DNA of 64,000 nt from Escherichia coli (GTDB lineage: Bacteria > Pseudomonadota > Gammaproteobacteria > Enterobacterales > Enterobacteriaceae), in the NCBI RefSeq assembly GCF_051903065.1, contig NZ_CP178438.1. One strand, given 5' to 3'. The notes beneath the pieces were generated by a model. That model was not told the DNA's origin. It did no database searches and saw only the letters and a list, made by a program, of their open reading frames with translations. Below, piece after piece: positions 13,403-64,000 of this stretch. The position numbers and the translations under genes are program-made. Every line of letters starts with the position of its first letter. Position 1 is the stretch's first letter.

Positions 13403-13858
13403 CGGTTTATCCCCGCTGGCGCGGGGAACACGTGTGGCACTCTGCGTCTGGTATTAAATCATTCGGTTTATCCCCGCTGGCGCGGGGAACACCCGCCACG
13501 CCGTGCGCATCAACAGATATACGCAGGTTTATCCCCGCTGGCGCGGGGAACACAAACCGAAACACACGATCAATCCGAATATGAGCGGTTTATCCCCGCT
13601 GGCGCGGGGAACACCGAAAAGGCACCGTGCCGGTGACGTTCAATTCCGGTTTATCCCCGCTGGCGCGGGGAACACCGTTTTCACTCACTGGCAATCTCCG
13701 AGCAGAGCGGTTTATCCCCGCTGGCGCGGGGAACACGTGCGAATACCGTGTAAAAAATTAGTGTTATTCGGTTTATCCCCGCTGGCGCGGGGAACACTCA
13801 CGGTAGCGCCACTGCGCGTCGGTGACGGGCGGTTTATCCCCGCTGGCGCGGGGAACAC
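13403..13858 (-). CRISPR. CRISPR array 1 (type I-E): 8 repeats, 7 spacers of 32 nt
   Basis: 29-bp repeat CGGTTTATCCCCGCTGGCGCGGGGAACAC at 13403, 13464, 13525, 13586, 13647, 13708, 13769, 13830 (61-bp period). Third repeat starts with A. AT-rich leader on the high-coordinate side, so transcription is on the minus strand. Confidence 0.97.
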
Positions 13859-20115: not shown

Positions 20116-20144
20116 CTGTTCCCCGCGTCAGCGGGGATAAGCCC
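20116..20144 (+). repeat. Solitary degenerate CRISPR-repeat-like element in the cas3-cse1 intergenic region
   Basis: cTGTTCCCCGCGtCAGCGGGGATAAgCCc is 24/29 identical to the crRNA-sense repeat GAGTTCCCCGCGCCAGCGGGGATAAACCG. Stem CCCCGC/GCGGGG is intact. crRNA sense is on the plus strand, opposite to the cas genes and to both arrays. Confidence 0.75.
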
Positions 20145-20169: not shown

Positions 20170-22869
20170 TCAATCAACCTTGCCAATCAATCCTTCCGTA
20201 GCCGAATACCCGCAGCTTTCGTCATCGGTGACTAAAATCACGTTTGCCATCTCCGGATCTTGCCGTTGTTCAATGCACCACTGCCTGAACGCTTCCCCTT
20301 CCAGTAAAGAAAATTCATCCCGATGTTTTTTCCACCAGCTTCGACGCACTCTGGCAACGCTCATTTCCCATGCGTGAGCACCGCTGGCATAAGGCTTCAC
20401 CACACCGTCAATACAGGTAGCCAGCCACAGGGAAACAGACTCTTCAGCCAGACGTGTCGACAGCTTTTCCGGGAGGTAATCGTTGATATTGGCGGCATAG
20501 CCGGGCCTGAAGTTCAGCATAAACTTTTTAGCCATTGCGCGATCGCAGTAATATTTGCCCACTTGCTCCTGCTCGCTGCGGGCAAATCCTTCCGGCATTA
20601 CCACGTCCTCACCGTAGACGGATTCAATAAGAAGCCGGGCTGCGTGTGGCATCTGAATAGCGCCTTGCTCACGCAATACTCGCTGCGTCAGCCAGATTCG
20701 CCCATGATCGGGGTAGACATATGCGCTGTTACGCATCGCACTACCAAACCATTCGTCACCCGGAGAGTCGTCCCAGACGGGGGCCAGAATCAGCAATTCA
20801 GGAGGGGAACGCTCGTCTTTTCCATCACGTTTTAACTGACCATTAATATCACGAATATGCCGTTGTAATCGCCCCGCTCGCTGGATCAGCAAATCAATGG
20901 GGGCCAGGTCGGAGATCATTTCGTCCAGGTCAATATCCACACTTTGCTCAATTACTTGTGTACAAACAATGACTTGAGATGATCTTTTTAAACTACAATT
21001 TTTACCAAAGCGTGCCAGCGTTTCCGTTTCAATTCGCTGGCGATCGCTAAAAGCAAAGCGGCTATGAAAAAGTGAAAGGCTGGAAGCAGGAATGACGCCG
21101 CGGGCAAGTAACTGACGATAAACCTTAATAGCGTCATCGACAGAATTCCGGATCCAGGCGATGCATTTCCCCTGACTTACCGCTGATTCGATACGCGCAA
21201 TACATTCTTGTTCGCTATGAAGCCAACCCACGCTCACGCTACGCTCAACGTCTTTGCGCGTCGCTACCCGGTGCGAATGCACATCGGATTTCGTGACATG
21301 CGTCAGCCAGGGGTAATCATCCTTTTCTAGGAACGGAGCTTCTTGCTGGCCCTCTGTGCCACGCGCAAAGGCGGCGACAAGTTTGTCGCGCTGCTGTTGA
21401 GATAACGTAGCAGAAAGCAAAATGACGCTGTTTCCGCCACGCACCTGTCGCTCAATCAACCCTTCAAGAATGTACGACATGTAAGCGTCACAGGCGTGGA
21501 TCTCATCAGCCAGCAGGATTTTGTTACTCAACCCCAGAAGCCGCAGATTATTATGTTTAAACGGCATCACTGCCATCATCGCCTGATCCAGCGTGCCGAC
21601 GCCAATTTCAGCCAGTAAAGCCTTCTTGTTACTGTCGGCAAACCAGGCTGCACATCCTTGACTGAACGCTTGTTCATCCGGTTCTTCTGACCCGACTAAA
21701 TCACCGGACCAGAGTGATTCATTAAAGCGTTCCATTAATGTACGGGCGCTGTGTGCCAGCACCAGGCTGGGGCGGGATTCTGGCGAAAAGAAAGCAAGCC
21801 AGGTTTTGACCAGCCGATCGTACATGGCATTGGCCGTTGCCATTGTTGGCAGGCCAAAAAACAAACCCTGAGCTTTATTCTCAGCCATCAACCTGTGCGC
21901 CAGGATAAGCGCCGCTTCTGTTTTACCTGCGCCAGTCACATCTTCCAGAATAAATAACTGTGGCCCTGGCTGGCTGATATCCAGATCCAGTACCTTTTGC
22001 TGTAATGGTGTCGGGTGCTCAATAAAAGGAAACAGCGTATTAATTCCGGTGAAAGGTGCGGTTTCTGCTTTTGGAGGAAAGACGGTTAAGGCGTTTTGAG
22101 CCTGAACTAAAGTTTTCTGCCAGTAATCTTTAATATTCATTGTCTGTGCGACGCGTGGAAAAAATCGCGTTGACGAACCCGTCCAGTCTGCGAGTACGAC
22201 TGTTGCAGAGATATACCAGGAAAGTTGTTTTAAAAGTTCAACGCCCTCGTCATCATCCCAGAATGTGGGAATCTCTATGAGCGGAAACAGTGACTTGATT
22301 TCAAGGAGAAAATCTCGTGCGGCAGCTTTGTCTTCAGGCAGGAAATTATCCAGTTCATCAATACGGTCAGGGGGCCGACCATGATGCCCGGTAGTCATGG
22401 GCATCCACATCGCTATTACACGTTTAAGTTTGCGAGTAGAGAGTGAAGAGGCAGGAAGCAATTCTTCGCATTCACTTAAATAATGATGCCACAACCAGTA
22501 GCCCAGCGTTGAATGAGAGATCTTTTCGTAATTCTTTCTTGCGCCTTCCGGAACCTTGAGTTGTGGGTGCAGGTAAAGTTGCTGAAATGAGCGGGCAAAT
22601 TTTCCAATATCGTGCCAGCACAACAACCAGGCGAAAAATTGAGCCGCCTGTTCCTTGTCAGAAATCCCTAATTGACGAAAATAATCAGCCAGCCCGAAGC
22701 AATTTCTTTTAACCATTAAATAGCCCATCGCGGCCACATCCAGCGAATGCCAGCAAAGAAGGTGATAGTCGTCACCCCCTTCTTTCTCGTCGCGTCGGGT
22801 TTTTCCCCAGAAATCAAAGAAAGTCACAATATTTTTATCCTTCAGTAAACTTAAAGGATATTTACGCAT
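20170..22869 (-). CDS. cas3: Cas3 HD-nuclease/helicase
   Basis: 899-aa ORF with N-terminal HD-like region and SF2 helicase motifs (DVTGAGKTEA, DEIH). Confidence 0.93.
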   Translation of the reverse strand: MRKYPLSLLKDKNIVTFFDFWGKTRRDEKEGGDDYHLLCWHSLDVAAMGYLMVKRNCFGLADYFRQLGISDKEQAAQFFAWLLCWHDIGKFARSFQQLYLHPQLKVPEGARKNYEKISHSTLGYWLWHHYLSECEELLPASSLSTRKLKRVIAMWMPMTTGHHGRPPDRIDELDNFLPEDKAAARDFLLEIKSLFPLIEIPTFWDDDEGVELLKQLSWYISATVVLADWTGSSTRFFPRVAQTMNIKDYWQKTLVQAQNALTVFPPKAETAPFTGINTLFPFIEHPTPLQQKVLDLDISQPGPQLFILEDVTGAGKTEAALILAHRLMAENKAQGLFFGLPTMATANAMYDRLVKTWLAFFSPESRPSLVLAHSARTLMERFNESLWSGDLVGSEEPDEQAFSQGCAAWFADSNKKALLAEIGVGTLDQAMMAVMPFKHNNLRLLGLSNKILLADEIHACDAYMSYILEGLIERQVRGGNSVILLSATLSQQQRDKLVAAFARGTEGQQEAPFLEKDDYPWLTHVTKSDVHSHRVATRKDVERSVSVGWLHSEQECIARIESAVSQGKCIAWIRNSVDDAIKVYRQLLARGVIPASSLSLFHSRFAFSDRQRIETETLARFGKNCSLKRSSQVIVCTQVIEQSVDIDLDEMISDLAPIDLLIQRAGRLQRHIRDINGQLKRDGKDERSPPELLILAPVWDDSPGDEWFGSAMRNSAYVYPDHGRIWLTQRVLREQGAIQMPHAARLLIESVYGEDVVMPEGFARSEQEQVGKYYCDRAMAKKFMLNFRPGYAANINDYLPEKLSTRLAEESVSLWLATCIDGVVKPYASGAHAWEMSVARVRRSWWKKHRDEFSLLEGEAFRQWCIEQRQDPEMANVILVTDDESCGYSATEGLIGKVD

Positions 22870-23061
22870 ATTTTAAAAATTATCTGTGATATATATCAGC
22901 CAATAAAACATTTATATTGTGAATAAATTTATGATTTTCATTTGAAATTCATAATAATAAATAGAGACAATATATTCACATAAAAAATATAAATTTAAAA
23001 AAGGGTGCAGGAGACCAAACCATCACAATTCAATACGCGGGGTTTTACCCCCGCGTGGTGG

Positions 23062-23214
23062 CTACTTCTTCGATTCGTAAGCGAGAACAGCCTTAAACTC
23101 CATACCACGTTCTCTGATACTCAACTCACACAACGAGTCACCTACCATCAGCGTGAATCCCAGTACTGTACAACACAGTACGATGATTGCCACAAGGGCA
23201 TATTTTGTCAGCAT
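23062..23214 (-). CDS. Hok/Gef-family type I toxin (HokE-like small membrane peptide)
   Basis: 50-codon ORF not in the track (below size cutoff): [50 protein letters not shown]. Hok signature (TM helix, SLCE, AYE) and a GGGAGG Shine-Dalgarno 7 nt upstream. Location matches the known hokX/sokX locus between cysH and cas3. Confidence 0.75.
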
Positions 23215-23478
23215 GTCTTGCCTCCCTGCAAAGAAGAGACTAACATTCGAATTGCTTAGGTTCGAACGCTGGCCTCAGGTTGATAGAAATATCGCCTGGG
23301 GCTTTTGTCCATCTGGAACCTCGCGAATGCTTAACGCCAGACAGCCTCAAGCACCCAACACCATTCTATACCTGTTAATTCTTCCAGCGGCGTTCACGTT
23401 TAAAATCAGGAATGCTGCTCGCAAAATAAAAACGCCCCCATCATTTCTGACAGAGGCGTTTAATTTATCCGGCAATAT

Positions 23479-39273: not shown

Positions 39274-39319
39274 GTGAGGAAGACCGGGCGGGAAACTGCC
39301 CGGCCTGAACATACCTGAA

Positions 39320-39458
39320 TGGTTATCCCCGCTGGCGCGGGGAACATAAGTTCGACAACTTAAAAAATGATAACAAGTCCGGTTTATCCCCGCTGATGCA
39401 GGGAACATAATAAAAACTTTAACTAGTTCGGTTTATCCCTGTTTTTACAAGGAATATT
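39320..39458 (-). CRISPR. Decayed CRISPR remnant: three degenerate type I-E repeats with irregular spacing
   Basis: tGGTT-ATCCCCGCTGGCGCGGGGAACAT (39320-39347), CGGTTTATCCCCGCTGATGCAGGGAACAT (39380-39408), CGGTTTATCCCTGTTTTTACAAGGAATAT (39430-39458); intervening segments 32 and 21 nt. Confidence 0.8.
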
Positions 39459-40976: not shown

Positions 40977-41554
40977 TGGTTTATCCCCGCTGGCGCGGGG
41001 AACTCGTACTGACGGATAAAAATAATACCTTTTGCGGCGGTTTATCCCCGCTGGCGCGGGGAACTCGTCAACGTTTTTCATGTGGGCATGAGTTGGGGCG
41101 GTTTATCCCCGCTGGCGCGGGGAACTCTATTCGGCCTCGTGCTGGTCGTGACAAAATACCGGTTTATCCCCGCTAGCGCGGGGAACTCTGGCGATATTGC
41201 CTACCGCAACAAAGAAAATACGGTTTATCCCCGCTAGCGCGGGGAACTCATCCACGAATCCAGTGCAAATGAGTTTGTTGGCGGTTTATCCCCGCTAGCG
41301 CGGGGAACTCATTGTGACTACCACCGATAACCCCGCAACCACCGGTTTATCCCCGCTAGCGCGGGGAACTCCTGCATTCGCCTGCGGTTATCAGATCGCT
41401 AAACGGTTTATCCCCGCTAGCGCGGGGAACTCGCTGCCATTACTTCCCGCCAGCGTTGCTCTGGCGGTTTATCCCCGCTAGCGCGGGGAACTCGCAGAGA
41501 ATCGTTCGATTGCCCCTACATCTTCCGGTTTATCCCCGCTGGCGCGGGGAACTC
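40977..41554 (-). CRISPR. CRISPR array 2 (type I-E): 10 repeats, 9 spacers of 32 nt
   Basis: 29-bp repeat CGGTTTATCCCCGCTGGCGCGGGGAACTC at 40977, 41038, 41099, 41160, 41221, 41282, 41343, 41404, 41465, 41526. Repeats 4-9 have CTAGCGC instead of CTGGCGC; repeat 1 starts with T. Leader on the high-coordinate side. Confidence 0.97.
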
Positions 41555-49618: not shown

Positions 49619-50410
49619 TTAGAGATCAATTTCCTGCCGTTTTACCTGTTGCCAGACTTCTTCCATTGTTTCGAGGTCAACACCTGTCATTTCCAGTCCA
49701 CGCGCGGCAACAATACGCTCCACTTCGCGAAAACGACGCTCGAATTTTTCGTTCGCTTTTTGCAATGCGATTTCTGCTTTCGTCCCTAAATGGCGAGCCA
49801 GATTAACCGTGGCAAACAGCAGGTCGCCCATTTCCTCCTCCAGTTTAGCCTGGTCGATAACAGCCTGCCGTGCCTCGTACATCACCTCGTCGATCTCTTC
49901 GTAGACTTTATCGACTACCGGACCAAGCGTCGTCCAGTCGAAGCCAACGTTGGCGCAACGTTTCTGGATTTTTTGCGCACGCATTAAAGCCGGTAAACTA
50001 CGAGGAATATCGTCCAGCGCCGAATGCTGCGCTTTCTGCGCGCGCTCTTCGGTTTTGATTTGCTCCCAACGGGCAAGCACTTCACTACTGTTTTCGGCAG
50101 AACTGTCAGCAAAAACATGCGGATGGCGACGCTCTAATTTATCGCTAATAGCAGCGCAAATATCATTAAAGTCAAAGCGCCCTTCTTCCTGAGCCATTTG
50201 CGCGTAAAACACCACCTGGAATAGCAGATCGCCCAGTTCACCGCGCAGATCGTCAAAATCTTCACGGGCGATGGCGTCCAGCACTTCGTAGGTTTCTTCA
50301 AGGGTGTAAGGCGCAATGGTGGCAAATGTCTGCTCTTTATCCCACGGGCAGCCGTTTTCCGGATCGCGCAGGCGCTGCATAATAGTGAGCAAACGGTCGA
50401 TTTGATTCAT
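49619..50410 (-). CDS. mazG: Nucleoside triphosphate pyrophosphohydrolase MazG
   Basis: 263-aa ORF. Confidence 0.95.
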   Translation of the reverse strand: MNQIDRLLTIMQRLRDPENGCPWDKEQTFATIAPYTLEETYEVLDAIAREDFDDLRGELGDLLFQVVFYAQMAQEEGRFDFNDICAAISDKLERRHPHVFADSSAENSSEVLARWEQIKTEERAQKAQHSALDDIPRSLPALMRAQKIQKRCANVGFDWTTLGPVVDKVYEEIDEVMYEARQAVIDQAKLEEEMGDLLFATVNLARHLGTKAEIALQKANEKFERRFREVERIVAARGLEMTGVDLETMEEVWQQVKRQEIDL

Positions 50411-50480
50411 TAGAATGTCCTGAAAATTGCGGGTCCGTCAGGTGGAAACCTGTGACCAGAATAGAAGTGAGTTAGTAACA

Positions 50481-50816
50481 CTACCCAATCAGTACGTTAA
50501 TTTTGGCTTTAATGAGTTGTAATTCCTCTGGGGCAACCGTTCCTTTCTTCGTTGCTCCTCTTGCCCGCCAGGCGATACTTTTTACCTGATCAGCTAACGC
50601 TACGCCATCACGTTCCTGACCGGATAAAACAACTTCGAACGGATATCCTTTTGATTGCGTTGTACAAGGAACACACAGACACATACCTGTTTTGTTGTTG
50701 TACATGAACGGACTCAGGACAACAGCCGGACGATGTCCGGCTTGCTCGCTACCTTTTGTCGGGTCAAAATCAACCCAAATCAGATCGCCCATATCGGGTA
50801 CGTATCGGCTTACCAT
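50481..50816 (-). CDS. mazF: Type II toxin MazF (mRNA interferase)
   Basis: 111-aa [39 protein letters not shown]... Confidence 0.97.
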   Translation of the reverse strand: MVSRYVPDMGDLIWVDFDPTKGSEQAGHRPAVVLSPFMYNNKTGMCLCVPCTTQSKGYPFEVVLSGQERDGVALADQVKSIAWRARGATKKGTVAPEELQLIKAKINVLIG

Positions 50817-51064
50817 TACCAGACTTCCTTATCTTTCGGCTCTCCCCAGTCGATATTCTCGTGGAGGTTTTCCGGCGTGATGTCGTTGACCAGTTCAGCA
50901 AGCGTAAATACGGGCTCTTTACGCACTGGCTCAATAATTAATTTGCCATCCACCAGGTCAATCTTCACTTCATCATCAATATTCAGATTGAGCGCCTGCA
51001 TTAACGTAGCCGGGATCCGCACCGCCGGTGAATTTCCCCAACGCTTTACGCTACTGTGGATCAT
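50816..51064 (-). CDS. mazE: Type II antitoxin MazE
   Basis: 82-aa [30 protein letters not shown]...; stop overlaps mazF start. Confidence 0.97.
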
Positions 51065-51087
51065 AACCCTTTCCTCAAACCGCTATC

Positions 51088-51128
51088 ATATGTAGATACA
51101 GTATATATCAATCTACATTGTAGATACG
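51088..51128 (-). promoter_or_regulatory. mazEF promoter/operator region with palindromic repeats
   Basis: ATGTAGATACAGTATATATCAATCTACATTGTAGATAC: TGTAGAT / ATCTACA inverted repeats just upstream of mazE. Confidence 0.45.
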
Positions 51129-51141
51129 AGCAAGTTTCGGC

Positions 51142-53376
51142 CTAACTCCCGTGCAACCGACGCGCGTCGATAACATCCGGCACCTGGTTCAGTTTACCCA
51201 GCACGCGACCCAGCACTTGCAGGTTGTAAATCTCAATGGTCATGTCGATGGTCGCCAGTTGCTGTTTGGTGTCGCTACGGCTGGCAACGCCAAGCACGTT
51301 CACTTTCTCATTGGCGAGAATGGTCGTGATATCACGTAACAACCCACTACGATCATTAGCCACCACGCGGACCACCAGCGAATATCCGGCGGAGTAGCTC
51401 TCGCCCCATACCGCGTCAACAATGCGTTCTGGCGCATGGGAGCGCAGTTCCGCCAGTTGTTCGCAATCGGCGCGGTGTACTGAAATACCGCGTCCCTGGG
51501 TAATGAAGCCGACAATCTCATCTCCAGGAATCGGCTGGCAGCAGCGCGCGATGTGGTGCATCAGGTTACCGACACCTTCAACCACCACACGACCGTTATC
51601 TTTACTGCGGTTTTGCGGCGTGTAGCTTTTTTGCTGAAGTTGCTTCAGCGCGGCGGCGTCCTGCTCTTCGGCACTCGGCTTATTAAATTGCGATTGCAGG
51701 AAGTTCACCATCTGATTGAGACGGATATCCCCGCCACCAATCGCCGCCAGCAACTCGTCGACATCATTGAAGTTGTAACGCGGCAGCAGATGTTTTTCTG
51801 CTTCTTTCAGGCTGATCCCCAGATGTTCCAGCTCGTCGTCAAGGATTTGCCGCCCAGCCAGAATGTTTTTGTCACGGTCCTGTTTACGGAACCAGGCGTG
51901 AATTTTCGAACGCCCACGGCTGGTTGTGACGTAACCGAGGTTTGGGTTTAACCAGTCACGGCTGGGGTTCGGCTGTTTCTGGGTGATAATTTCAATCTGG
52001 TCGCCCATTTGCAGCTGGTAGGTGAACGGCACAATGCGCCCGCCAATTTTTGCCCCGATGCAGCGGTGTCCGACATCACTGTGGATGTGGTAAGCGAAGT
52101 CCAGCGGCGTTGATCCCGCAGGCAAATCAACGACATCACCTTTCGGCGTAAAGACATACACCCGGTCGTCAAACACCTGACTACGTACTTCGTCGAGCAT
52201 TTCGCCGGAATCAGCCATCTCTTCCTGCCACGCAATCAGTTTACGCAGCCAGGCAATCCGGTCTTCATGTCCCGAACGTGCGCCGCCAGCAGCCGCGCCC
52301 TCTTTATATTTCCAGTGCGCAGCAACACCCAACTCTGCATCTTCATGCATCTGTTTGGTGCGGATTTGGATCTCAACGGTTTTTCCACCCGGCCCCAGAA
52401 CCACGGTATGAATAGACTGATAACCGTTTGGTTTCGGGTTAGCGACGTAATCGTCAAACTCATCCGGCAGGTGGCGATAGTGAGTGTGCACTATCCCCAG
52501 TGCGGCATAACAATCCTGTAAACGCTCGGCGACAATACGTACCGCACGCACATCAAACAGCTCATCGAAGGCGAGGTTCTTTTTCTGCATTTTGCGCCAG
52601 ATGCTGTAGATGTGTTTCGGACGACCATACACTTCAGCTTTAACGCCTTCAGCTTTCATCTCAGCGCGCAGATGACCGACAAACTCTTCGATATAGTGTT
52701 CGCGGTCGAGACGGCGTTCATGCAACAGTTTTGCGATGCGTTTGTATTCGGTCGGGTGGAGATAACGGAAGCAGTAATCTTCCAGCTCCCATTTCAGTTG
52801 CCCAATCCCAAGACGGTTTGCCAACGGCGCGTAGATATTGGTGCACTCTTTTGCCGCCAGTACGCGTTCATCTTCCGGCGCATCTTTTACTTCACGCAGA
52901 TGAGCAATACGCTCCGCCAGTTTGATGACCACGCAGCGAAAATCATCGACCATCGCCAATAACATCCGGCGAACGTTATCGACCTGTTCGGAGGAAACAG
53001 AATCAGTGTGCGTCGCTTTCAGCTGGCGGATCGCCGCCATATCACGCACGCCGTGAATAAGGTTAACGACCGACTTACCGACGCTCTCACGCAGCACATC
53101 TTCGCTGACTACGTTGGCATCGGCCAGAGGGAACAGCAGCGCCGCCCGCAGCGTGTCAATATCCATACTTAATGTCGAGAGGATCTCCACCATCTCAACA
53201 CCACGCCACAATAACAGACTGGCATCCGGATGCCCCTGCGTCTGCTGCAGACAATACGCCCAGGTTTCGGCTAAGCACTCACACGACTTCTGGCTGGTAA
53301 TACCCAGACTTGCGATCCATTTTTCCGGATCAAATTCACCAGCCTTATTGATATGTGCACTTCTTACCGCAACCAT
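51142..53376 (-). CDS. relA: GTP pyrophosphokinase ((p)ppGpp synthetase I)
   Basis: 744-aa ORF. Confidence 0.98.
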   Translation of the reverse strand: MVAVRSAHINKAGEFDPEKWIASLGITSQKSCECLAETWAYCLQQTQGHPDASLLLWRGVEMVEILSTLSMDIDTLRAALLFPLADANVVSEDVLRESVGKSVVNLIHGVRDMAAIRQLKATHTDSVSSEQVDNVRRMLLAMVDDFRCVVIKLAERIAHLREVKDAPEDERVLAAKECTNIYAPLANRLGIGQLKWELEDYCFRYLHPTEYKRIAKLLHERRLDREHYIEEFVGHLRAEMKAEGVKAEVYGRPKHIYSIWRKMQKKNLAFDELFDVRAVRIVAERLQDCYAALGIVHTHYRHLPDEFDDYVANPKPNGYQSIHTVVLGPGGKTVEIQIRTKQMHEDAELGVAAHWKYKEGAAAGGARSGHEDRIAWLRKLIAWQEEMADSGEMLDEVRSQVFDDRVYVFTPKGDVVDLPAGSTPLDFAYHIHSDVGHRCIGAKIGGRIVPFTYQLQMGDQIEIITQKQPNPSRDWLNPNLGYVTTSRGRSKIHAWFRKQDRDKNILAGRQILDDELEHLGISLKEAEKHLLPRYNFNDVDELLAAIGGGDIRLNQMVNFLQSQFNKPSAEEQDAAALKQLQQKSYTPQNRSKDNGRVVVEGVGNLMHHIARCCQPIPGDEIVGFITQGRGISVHRADCEQLAELRSHAPERIVDAVWGESYSAGYSLVVRVVANDRSGLLRDITTILANEKVNVLGVASRSDTKQQLATIDMTIEIYNLQVLGRVLGKLNQVPDVIDARRLHGS

Positions 53377-53423: not shown

Positions 53424-54725
53424 CTATTTAACGCGCGAGAAAAGTACCATCGATTCCAGATGTCCCGTGTGTGGGAACATATCCAGCATCGCCAGTCGCG
53501 CAATGGTATATCCTGCTTTTAATAACGCTTCGCTATCCCGAGCCAGCGTTGCAGGGTTACAGGATACATAAACTATACGAATAGGTTCCAGTTTTATAAT
53601 TTGCTGCATAACACCTGCGGCACCTGCTCGCGCCGGGTCCAGCAACACTTTATCGAAGCCGTTTTTCGCCCACGGCTGCTTTGTGACATCTTCTTCAAGA
53701 TTTTCGTGATAAAACGTCACATTCTGTAAGCCATTAAGACGCGCATTCTGCTGGCCTTTTTCCACCAGCGCCGGAACACCTTCTACACCCACGACACTGG
53801 CTGCTTGTGTCGCCAATGGCAGTGTAAAGTTGCCCATACCGCAGAACAGATCCAGTACGCGATCTTCAGGTTGCACATCCAGCCATTCCAACGCACGCGC
53901 TTCCATTTTTTGGTTCACACCCGCATTGACCTGAATAAAATCGCGCGGGCTAAAAGTTAAGCGCAACCCGTTTGAGTCATACCAGGGCATCTCACCAGAG
54001 ACGGTTTCGAGTATCTCACTATCGGGGGCGAGATACAGATCCAGGCCTTCAGAATGCGAAAAGCGTTCCAGTTTTTCGCGATCTGCCGAACTTAGCGGTG
54101 CGGTATGGCGCAAAATCATCAGCGTGCCGCTGGTTGCCTGTACTAGTTCAACATGACCAAGATGGCGCATAGCTTGTAAGCTGCCCAGGCATGCCCTGAC
54201 TTTGGGCAGCAATGCTTCAAGTTGGGGCACTAAAATGGGGCATTGTTTAACGTCGACAATGTCACTGGAGCCCGCTTTGCGAAACCCCATCTGAAGTTGC
54301 TGTGTTTTCGGTAAGTAGTTCAGACTTAAACGCGCGCGACGGCGATAGCCCCAGGGAACATCGGCGATCACTTCAGAGACTTCGTGTTTCATTAATCGGG
54401 CGAGTGCCGCACTTTTGCTTCGCTGCTGTAAATCCACGCTGGCGTGTTGTTGCTGACAGCCGCCGCATACGCCAAAATGAGGACAGCGTGGCGTTTCGCG
54501 TTCCGGGCTATCGCTTAACCGGCGTACGACTTTAGCGCGGGCATACTGTTTTTTATCTTCAGTAACAGTAACTTCCGCGTTTTCCTGCGGCAATAATCCG
54601 GGGATAAATAGCGTTTTGCCGTTATGTCGCGCCACGCCCTGACCAAAAGAGTCGAGGTCGTTGACTGAAACGGTTATGATCTGACGCGTCGTCGTGCGTC
54701 GTTTTGCAGAGTAGAATTGCGCCAT
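53424..54725 (-). CDS. rlmD: 23S rRNA (uracil1939-C5)-methyltransferase
   Basis: 433-aa ORF with TRAM and SAM-MTase regions and Fe-S Cys motif ([11 protein letters not shown]). Confidence 0.95.
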
Positions 54726-63839: not shown

Positions 63840-63882
63840 AAAGCAACCTCAATAAGAAAAACTGCCGCGAAGGATAGCAGGA

Positions 63883-64000
63883 ATAAAAAAAGGGAGCACT
63901 GTATTCACAGTGCTCCCGGTTCGTTTCGCAGCATTCCAGCTACATTTGTTGCTCCCTGCTCATCCTTGACAACTTTTCCTCTGGCCTTGCGGCCAATCGT
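63883..64000 (-). ncRNA. csrB: 3' portion of the CsrA-sequestering sRNA CsrB (continues beyond window end)
   Basis: Minus strand reads ...CAAGGATGAGCAGGGAGCAACAAATGTAGCTGGAATGCTGCGAAACGAACC followed by terminator GGGAGCACTGTGAATACAGTGCTCCC + T-run; GGA-containing motifs and the expected position next to yqcC. Confidence 0.8.

Follow-up and report, generated by a model that had tools for sequence, protein, structure and literature searches.

The feature at positions 50481 to 51141 of the window (the whole 64,000-nucleotide stretch of Escherichia coli DNA analyzed here) is, with a probability of about 97%, an intact type II toxin-antitoxin operon, the chromosomal mazEF (chpA) locus of E. coli, whose proteins cannot be distinguished from those of K-12. 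The interval begins with the final nucleotide of the mazF stop codon and ends one nucleotide short of the relA stop codon. According to the list of open reading frames, the genes of the region lie, in transcription order and all on the minus strand, as follows: rlmD (53424 to 54725), relA (51142 to 53376), mazE (50816 to 51064), mazF (50481 to 50816), mazG (49619 to 50410), pyrG, and eno. The locus is ordinary and already known in full; to our knowledge, mazEF was the first chromosomal toxin-antitoxin system ever described, and it is among the most studied.

The antitoxin gene, mazE (82 amino acids), precedes the gene for the toxin MazF (111 amino acids), a predicted PemK-fold, ACA-specific endoribonuclease. 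The two genes form a bicistronic unit in which the TAA stop codon of mazE and the ATG start codon of mazF have one base in common (TAATG; sense strand ...GTCTGGTAATGGTAAGC). Direct reading places a Shine-Dalgarno motif, GAGG, at 51073 to 51076 (minus strand), ending 8 nt 5′ of the mazE ATG, and the corresponding motif of mazF, AAGGAAG, lies within mazE at 50824 to 50830 (minus strand). MazF matches Pfam PF02452 (PemK_toxin) with 84.8 bits (cutoff, 23.1) and the NCBIfam equivalog NF007386 with 227.4 bits (cutoff, 120), and MazE matches PF04014 (MazE_antitoxin) with 52.9 bits (cutoff, 24.7) and the equivalog NF007312 with 196.2 bits (cutoff, 113). Among solved structures, which for MazE and MazF comprise both crystal and NMR structures, full-length matches were obtained for MazF with PDB 3nfc, 5ck9, and 1ub4 and for MazE with PDB 1mvf, 1ub4, and 2mrn. 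Base-by-base comparison with K-12 MG1655 revealed no amino acid difference in MazE, MazF, or RelA. Profiles, structures, and identity to K-12 thus agree in identifying the toxin as the E. coli MazF orthologue with the PemK/MazF fold and its partner as the antitoxin of E. coli MazEF (ChpA). The same K-12 comparison detected no frameshift or premature stop codon in the module, and a decayed module in the present strain was ruled out by the lack of any amino acid change. The sequence-only reading had described a canonical mazE-mazF pair with overlapping stop and start codons, and these results bear it out.

The flanking genes place the module. Upstream, relA encodes a GTP diphosphokinase of 744 amino acids with the Pfam domains HD_4, RelA_SpoT, TGS, and ACT, is annotated as such in RefSeq, and is identical in amino acid sequence to its K-12 counterpart; 77 bp separate its stop codon from the mazE ATG, and the relA-mazEFG transcription unit has relA at its upstream end. 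Downstream, mazG encodes a nucleoside triphosphate pyrophosphohydrolase of 263 amino acids (Pfam PF03819; NCBIfam NF007113, 370 bits versus a cutoff of 208). The location between relA and mazG, as originally proposed, is therefore corroborated by Pfam, NCBIfam, and the RefSeq annotation of near-identical genomes, and 4,415 complete E. coli genomes carry the RefSeq annotation mazE and mazF for the same genes at this site. The strain is of non-K-12 background; the nearest genome is that of ECNB21-M121, with about 99.98 to 99.99% identity over the flanks, compared with 98.5% for K-12.

Related systems are clearly distinguishable from the one in the window. The chpB module of E. coli (chpS/chpBK), a paralogous PemK-family system at a chromosomal site other than that of mazEF, combines the same folds (AbrB-type antitoxin and PemK-type toxin) and also carries the antitoxin gene first, but the window proteins score only 55 bits against the ChpB equivalog model (cutoff, 129) and 35 bits against that of ChpS (cutoff, 101). 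They also fall far under the cutoffs of the NCBIfam models for Agrobacterium-type MazEF. The toxin of Bacillus subtilis ndoAI/ndoA (EndoAI/EndoA, ydcDE) is likewise a MazF-family endoribonuclease (PDB 4mdx and 1ne8, at about E = 4e-5), whereas its genomic context differs from that of E. coli mazEF. The EndoAI antitoxin has an RHH-type fold, and the B. subtilis toxin recognizes an RNA sequence other than that of E. coli MazF. The plasmid systems parD (kis/kid, R1) and pemIK (R100) encode homologous toxins, and Kid (PDB 1m1f) matches MazF at E = 7.6e-9. These systems share the logic of mazEF, with autorepression by antitoxin and toxin and a labile antitoxin (PMC4333400); unlike mazEF, they are plasmid borne, mediate postsegregational killing, and are only distantly similar in sequence.

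The 77-bp spacer between relA and mazE contains the described mazEF operator. On the sense strand the spacer reads GCCGAAACTTGCTCGT-ATCTACA-A-TGTAGAT-TGATATATACTGT-ATCTACA-TATGATAGCGGTTTGAGGAAAGGGTT and so holds three arms, the middle one being complementary to each of the outer ones. Two inverted repeats were returned by the repeat finder: one, 8 nt and 100% complementary, pairs ATGTAGAT (51090 to 51097) with ATCTACAT (51111 to 51118) across 13 nt, and the other pairs ATCTACA (51111 to 51117) with TGTAGAT (51119 to 51125) across 1 nt. On the minus strand, the upstream arm (sense ATCTACA) thus occupies 51119 to 51125 and belongs to the second repeat, the middle arm (sense TGTAGAT) occupies 51111 to 51117 and belongs to both, and the downstream arm (sense ATCTACAT) occupies 51090 to 51097 and belongs to the first. 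Mononucleotide shuffling of the spacer yielded a 7-mer with reverse-complement partners to its left and right in only 4 of 20,000 trials, and the three-arm arrangement exceeds chance. All three arms, including the upstream one, are invariant across six diverse aligned E. coli loci, with a single change at 51110 in one strain.

The operator itself, termed cab and comprising three sites at which the MazE dimer binds, spans 51081 to 51130 (minus strand), where the published 50-nt oligonucleotide CTCGTATCTACAATGTAGATTGATATATACTGTATCTACATATGATAGCG matches with 0 mismatches (0.00 matches expected by chance). This oligonucleotide stems from the MazE-DNA binding work of Zorzini et al. 2015 (PMC4333400). 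Site a (sense TTGATATATACTGT; 51098 to 51111, minus strand), the same as the a oligonucleotide in that study, includes a perfect ATATAT palindrome at 51103 to 51108 and is the MazE site of highest affinity in the published binding work (PMC4333400). The alternating palindrome was defined as the mazEF operator by Marianovsky et al. 2001, as summarized in PMC4803016. At the sequence level, both the cab match and the three-arm repeat place MazE sites in the order c-a-b upstream of mazE. The sequence-only reading had recognized a palindromic operator with TGTAGAT/ATCTACA inverted repeats and had suggested comparing it with the described mazEF operator. The repeats are present, and the comparison yielded identity; the structure, however, is not a simple palindrome but an alternating one that has three arms and three MazE sites.

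Two promoters of mazEF, P2 and P3, lie 13 nt apart; MazE represses both, and MazE-MazF does so more strongly (PMC4803016). Candidate −10 hexamers can be read from the minus strand as TATACT (51100 to 51105), within the operator, for the stronger promoter P2 and as TATGAT (51085 to 51090) for the weaker promoter P3, with a possible −35 hexamer, TTGATA (51106 to 51111), 15 nt upstream of TATGAT. We infer this assignment because the two hexamers, whose starts are 15 nt apart, are offset by close to the reported spacing and because each matches TATAAT in 5 of 6 positions. A scan for the sigma-70 consensus called neither these sites nor P2 or P3. Its sole match in the spacer (51089 to 51060) would place a −10 hexamer on the mazE start codon and is probably spurious, since transcription would start within mazE and since the region holds fewer promoter-like sites than its shuffles do (2 versus a mean of 3.9). 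A literature search found no usable transcription start-site coordinates for the mazEF promoters.

The 15-mer that adjoins the operator on its upstream side, at 51127 to 51141 (minus strand; sense GGCCGAAACTTGCTC), agrees with the degenerate Fis consensus, which we take to be GNNYRNNWNNYRNNC. It is a candidate for the Fis site reported upstream of the palindrome, from which P2 and P3 are activated (PMC4803016).

The minus strand showed no terminator-like site in either the relA-mazE or the mazF-mazG spacer. The 70-bp mazF-mazG spacer (50411 to 50480, minus strand) contains only a weak hairpin that is not followed by a U-run. The module thus sits in the relA-mazG interval uninterrupted by terminator-like sites, and cotranscription itself is known from the literature: mazEF belongs to a relA-mazEFG operon (PMC7167474), mazG is cotranscribed with mazEF (PMC4803016), and relA has its own promoters (PMC4803016, PMC7167474). 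Read-through from relA into mazEF is plausible, given that operon and the lack of a terminator-like site before mazE. It had been proposed from the sequence that stringent-response transcription may read in from relA. The read-through part of that proposal agrees with the missing terminator and the known operon, whereas "stringent-response" is imprecise, since the reported effect of ppGpp on mazEF transcription is repression and not stimulation (cited reviews PMC4803016 and PMC7167474).

An antisense RNA known from K-12 would also cover the module. The coordinates of aMEF (ameF, b4844), a K-12 noncoding RNA at 2911051 to 2911450 (plus strand), were transferred to approximately 50776 to 51175 (plus strand) of the window, and the offset was checked by a gap-free base-by-base comparison with K-12. 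The transferred RNA starts in the 5′ part of mazF, crosses mazE and the operator, and ends in the last 34 nt of relA. In K-12, knockdown of the weak, noncanonical aMEF promoter lowers MazE and MazF and abolishes the monocistronic mazE transcript (Van Gundy et al. 2022, PMC8749433).

The module of K-12 (b2783/b2782) has the same relA-mazE-mazF-mazG order, MazE and MazF proteins that are 100% identical, the same TAATG overlap, the same 50-nt cab operator with its alternating palindrome, and the same spacers of 77 and 70 bp. Over 50411 to 51141, the window differs from K-12 at nine nucleotides: four are synonymous changes in mazF, four lie in the mazF-mazG spacer, and one is at 51134, with none in mazE. 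Position 51134 is G where K-12 has A (C for T on the sense strand); it lies 8 nt after the relA stop codon, inside the 15-mer that resembles the Fis consensus. At 50739, which corresponds to position −37 relative to the transferred aMEF start site, the window has G and K-12 has A. On account of the changes at 50739 and in the putative Fis region (51134), regulation could differ in degree from that of K-12.

Identity to the studied proteins suggests how the operon would work. From this identity we infer the RNase specificity, MazE proteolysis, MazE-DNA binding, Fis activation, the action of aMEF, and the exact promoter hexamers. mazE and mazF would be transcribed together, from two close promoters in the 77-bp spacer and by read-through from relA, with transcription running on into mazG, and their translation would be coupled through the TAATG overlap. 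MazF is expected to be a dimeric PemK-fold endoribonuclease that cuts single-stranded RNA at ACA and so blocks translation; ACA occurs eight times in the mazF mRNA, twice in mazE, and twice in the relA-mazE spacer, once in each ATCTACA arm. MazE would form a dimer with a DNA-binding domain of the AbrB/SpoVT type at its N terminus and a disordered C-terminal tail that wraps MazF, and the toxin would be neutralized in a MazF2-MazE2-MazF2 complex. Continued expression would be needed to keep MazF inactive, because MazE is unstable, being degraded by ClpAP and Lon (PMC8749433, PMC7167474).

MazE and, more strongly, MazE-MazF would bind the adjacent sites c, a, and b at 51081 to 51130. The operon is predicted to repress itself, as the operator overlaps the promoters and holds the three-arm palindrome. 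Very high MazF:MazE ratios would weaken operator binding, Fis bound upstream would activate transcription, and aMEF, starting within mazF, would raise the levels of MazE and MazF, as shown in K-12. This scheme draws on published work on DNA binding (PMC4333400) and on regulation and RNase activity (PMC4803016), and nothing in the window sequence suggests a departure from the established MazEF scheme. The physiological role of chromosomal mazEF is disputed (PMC7167474).

The module is not universal in E. coli. Of 5,426 complete E. coli genomes, 4,506 contain the 731-bp cassette with its two spacers, in every case chromosomally. When the flanks were included in the query, 5,425 genomes matched, 4,415 of which contained the cassette at a coverage of at least 80%. 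About 1,010 of the 5,425 (∼19%) lack mazEF, and among the low-coverage (55%) matches listed, relA adjoins mazG. mazEF is therefore an accessory cassette with a presence/absence polymorphism. In strain SCU-105 (L004, positions 701 to 795, compared with 50449 to 51139 of the window), the gap between relA and mazG is 95 bp and contains no mazEF. Approximately 55 nt of this gap is unrelated filler that folds into a 12-bp GC-rich hairpin (GCTGGATATGGC/GCCGTATCCAGC), and no discussion of such a filler hairpin was found in PMC7167474. Strains free of mazEF were described previously, PMC7167474 citing UTI89. Among plasmids, 1,568 records from many genera carry MazF-family toxins, the best true plasmid match to MazF being from Providencia (70% identity). 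One match in the plasmid collection, H46 (NZ_OL790696.1), is a 4.8-Mb E. coli record with 98% identity to MazF and probably represents a misfiled chromosome, not a plasmid-borne copy of mazEF. The sequence-only reading had left out this accessory nature, along with the three-arm palindrome, the antisense RNA aMEF, and the cotranscribed mazG.

The window also contains a type I-E CRISPR-Cas system and a second toxin-antitoxin system. cas3 of the type I-E cas operon lies at 20170 to 22869 (minus strand), and the CRISPR arrays lie at 13403 to 13856 and 40977 to 41552. A hok coding sequence of 50 amino acids (23062 to 23214, minus strand; RefSeq Hok/Gef family protein WP_000956458.1) overlaps sok (23199 to 23356, minus strand), which matches Rfam RF01794 with 111.7 bits (gathering score, 59). 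The protein falls under the NCBIfam cutoffs for both HokA (53 versus 89 bits) and Hok (39.5 versus 73 bits) and is therefore a divergent Hok. The combination of a small Hok/Gef-family open reading frame with an overlapping antisense Sok, with Hok function predicted from sequence, confirms the earlier claim that the window carries a hok-like type I system as well. The further claim that the two toxin-antitoxin systems flank the CRISPR-Cas region applies to hok/sok, which abuts cas3, but only loosely to mazEF, which is 27.6 kb from cas3 and approximately 8.9 kb from the second, nearer array. The genes between mazEF and CRISPR-Cas include the housekeeping genes mazG, pyrG, eno, and queE, as well as cys genes and genes for LemA- and TPM-domain proteins.

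Several other elements were observed in this neighborhood. Approximately 1.6 kb away from the second array, two degenerate CRISPR repeats with 3 mismatches each and a spacing of 61 nt (39319 to 39406, minus strand) probably represent what is left of a mini-array. A solitary CRISPR-repeat-like sequence (20118 to 20144, plus strand; 3 mismatches to the array repeat) lies between cas3 and casA, inverted relative to the arrays and approximately 25 nt after the cas3 stop codon. A perfect 11-bp hairpin (GCCCTGGCGTC/GACGCCAGGGC) ends just 5′ of it, and AATTTTTG comes after; the sequence may have a regulatory role as an element derived from a repeat, or a repeat may have given rise to a terminator of cas3 here. 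ECNB21-M121 carries an IS4-like element, IS421, between hok and cas3 (L003, 25366 to 26704, compared with 23040 to 23051 of the window) that is absent from the window, and the second CRISPR array (at approximately 41 kb) differs between the two despite flanks that are 99.98% identical. The window ends within the gene for the CsrB small RNA, of which it holds the 3′ part (63882 to 64000, minus strand; Rfam RF00018, 135.7 bits).

The position of the module can be read in more than one way. mazEF may be a selfish, addiction-type insertion at relA-mazG that persists since its loss is costly, with no function tied to relA or mazG, and would then be neither an effector of the stringent response nor a device for programmed cell death; such a reading contests the meaning of the position and not the identity of the module. 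The chances that it is correct are about even. It agrees with the approximately 1,010 genomes without mazEF, with the 95-bp gap in SCU-105, and with the sharp boundaries of the indel, which extends from approximately 3 nt after the relA stop codon to approximately 40 nt before the mazG ATG, as well as with the spread of MazF-family toxins on plasmids of many genera. The cassette is also less diverse than its flanks: in the alignment of six E. coli loci, a very small sample (window 50011 to 51541, K-12, and L006 to L009), the proportion of variable columns is 2.0% in mazE and 2.7% in mazF, compared with 5 to 7% in the adjoining 400-bp pieces of relA and mazG and in both spacers. The same conclusion is reached in PMC7167474, which argues that mazEF was inserted into a functional relA-mazG operon independently of its function. 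Cotranscription with relA and mazG and the reported responsiveness of the locus to ppGpp and Fis (PMC4803016) speak against a purely selfish element, as does the strict conservation of MazE and MazF wherever they are present.

Two further readings concern the operator and the neighborhood. The inverted repeats might act mainly in relA read-through RNA, as a terminator, attenuator, or stabilizing hairpin, rather than as a DNA operator, as an 8-bp hairpin (AUGUAGAU/AUCUACAU) can form and the MazF cleavage motif ACA is present in each ATCTACA arm. The spacer, however, folds with −15.5 kcal/mol, no better than expected (z = −0.97; 32 of 200 shuffles fold at least as well), the hairpin is not followed by a U-run, and direct binding of MazE to operator DNA has been demonstrated (PMC4333400). 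A primary function in RNA is thus very improbable and was rejected on the z score against shuffles and the lack of a minus-strand terminator-like site. As a speculation of similarly slim probability, the operator arms may also work in RNA; in relA read-through transcripts the middle arm could pair with either outer arm, each of these alternative hairpins would conceal a different ACA, and read-through and promoter-proximal mazEF mRNAs would then be processed by MazF in different ways. A more modest second reading, equally doubtful, is that the low diversity of the cassette reflects recent recombinational spread of mazEF through E. coli. It is extremely unlikely that mazEF, hok/sok, and the type I-E CRISPR-Cas system form a defence island in which the toxin-antitoxin systems stabilize or cooperate with CRISPR-Cas, e.g., as an abortive-infection backup. 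All three lie within one 64-kb window, with hok/sok directly abutting cas3, and the review PMC7167474 cites work in which deletion of mazEF led to more P1 infection. Nevertheless, core metabolic genes fill the distance between mazEF and both cas3 and the nearer array, and SCU-105, which lacks mazEF, retains hok, the type I-E cas genes (cas1e being a pseudogene interrupted by an internal stop), and the CRISPR array on the queE side, so the presence of mazEF is uncoupled from that of the cas genes, at least in this strain. A functional link between mazEF and CRISPR-Cas was rejected on these two grounds.

The preferred reading is the chromosomal mazEF operon with its described DNA operator, and no observation speaks against this identification. 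The association of toxin-antitoxin systems with CRISPR-Cas in the window is a matter of map position and not evidence of a joint system. The value of the identification lies in annotation: it marks the window as the rlmD-relA-mazEFG-pyrG-eno region of the E. coli chromosome and fixes where the operator and the antisense RNA lie.
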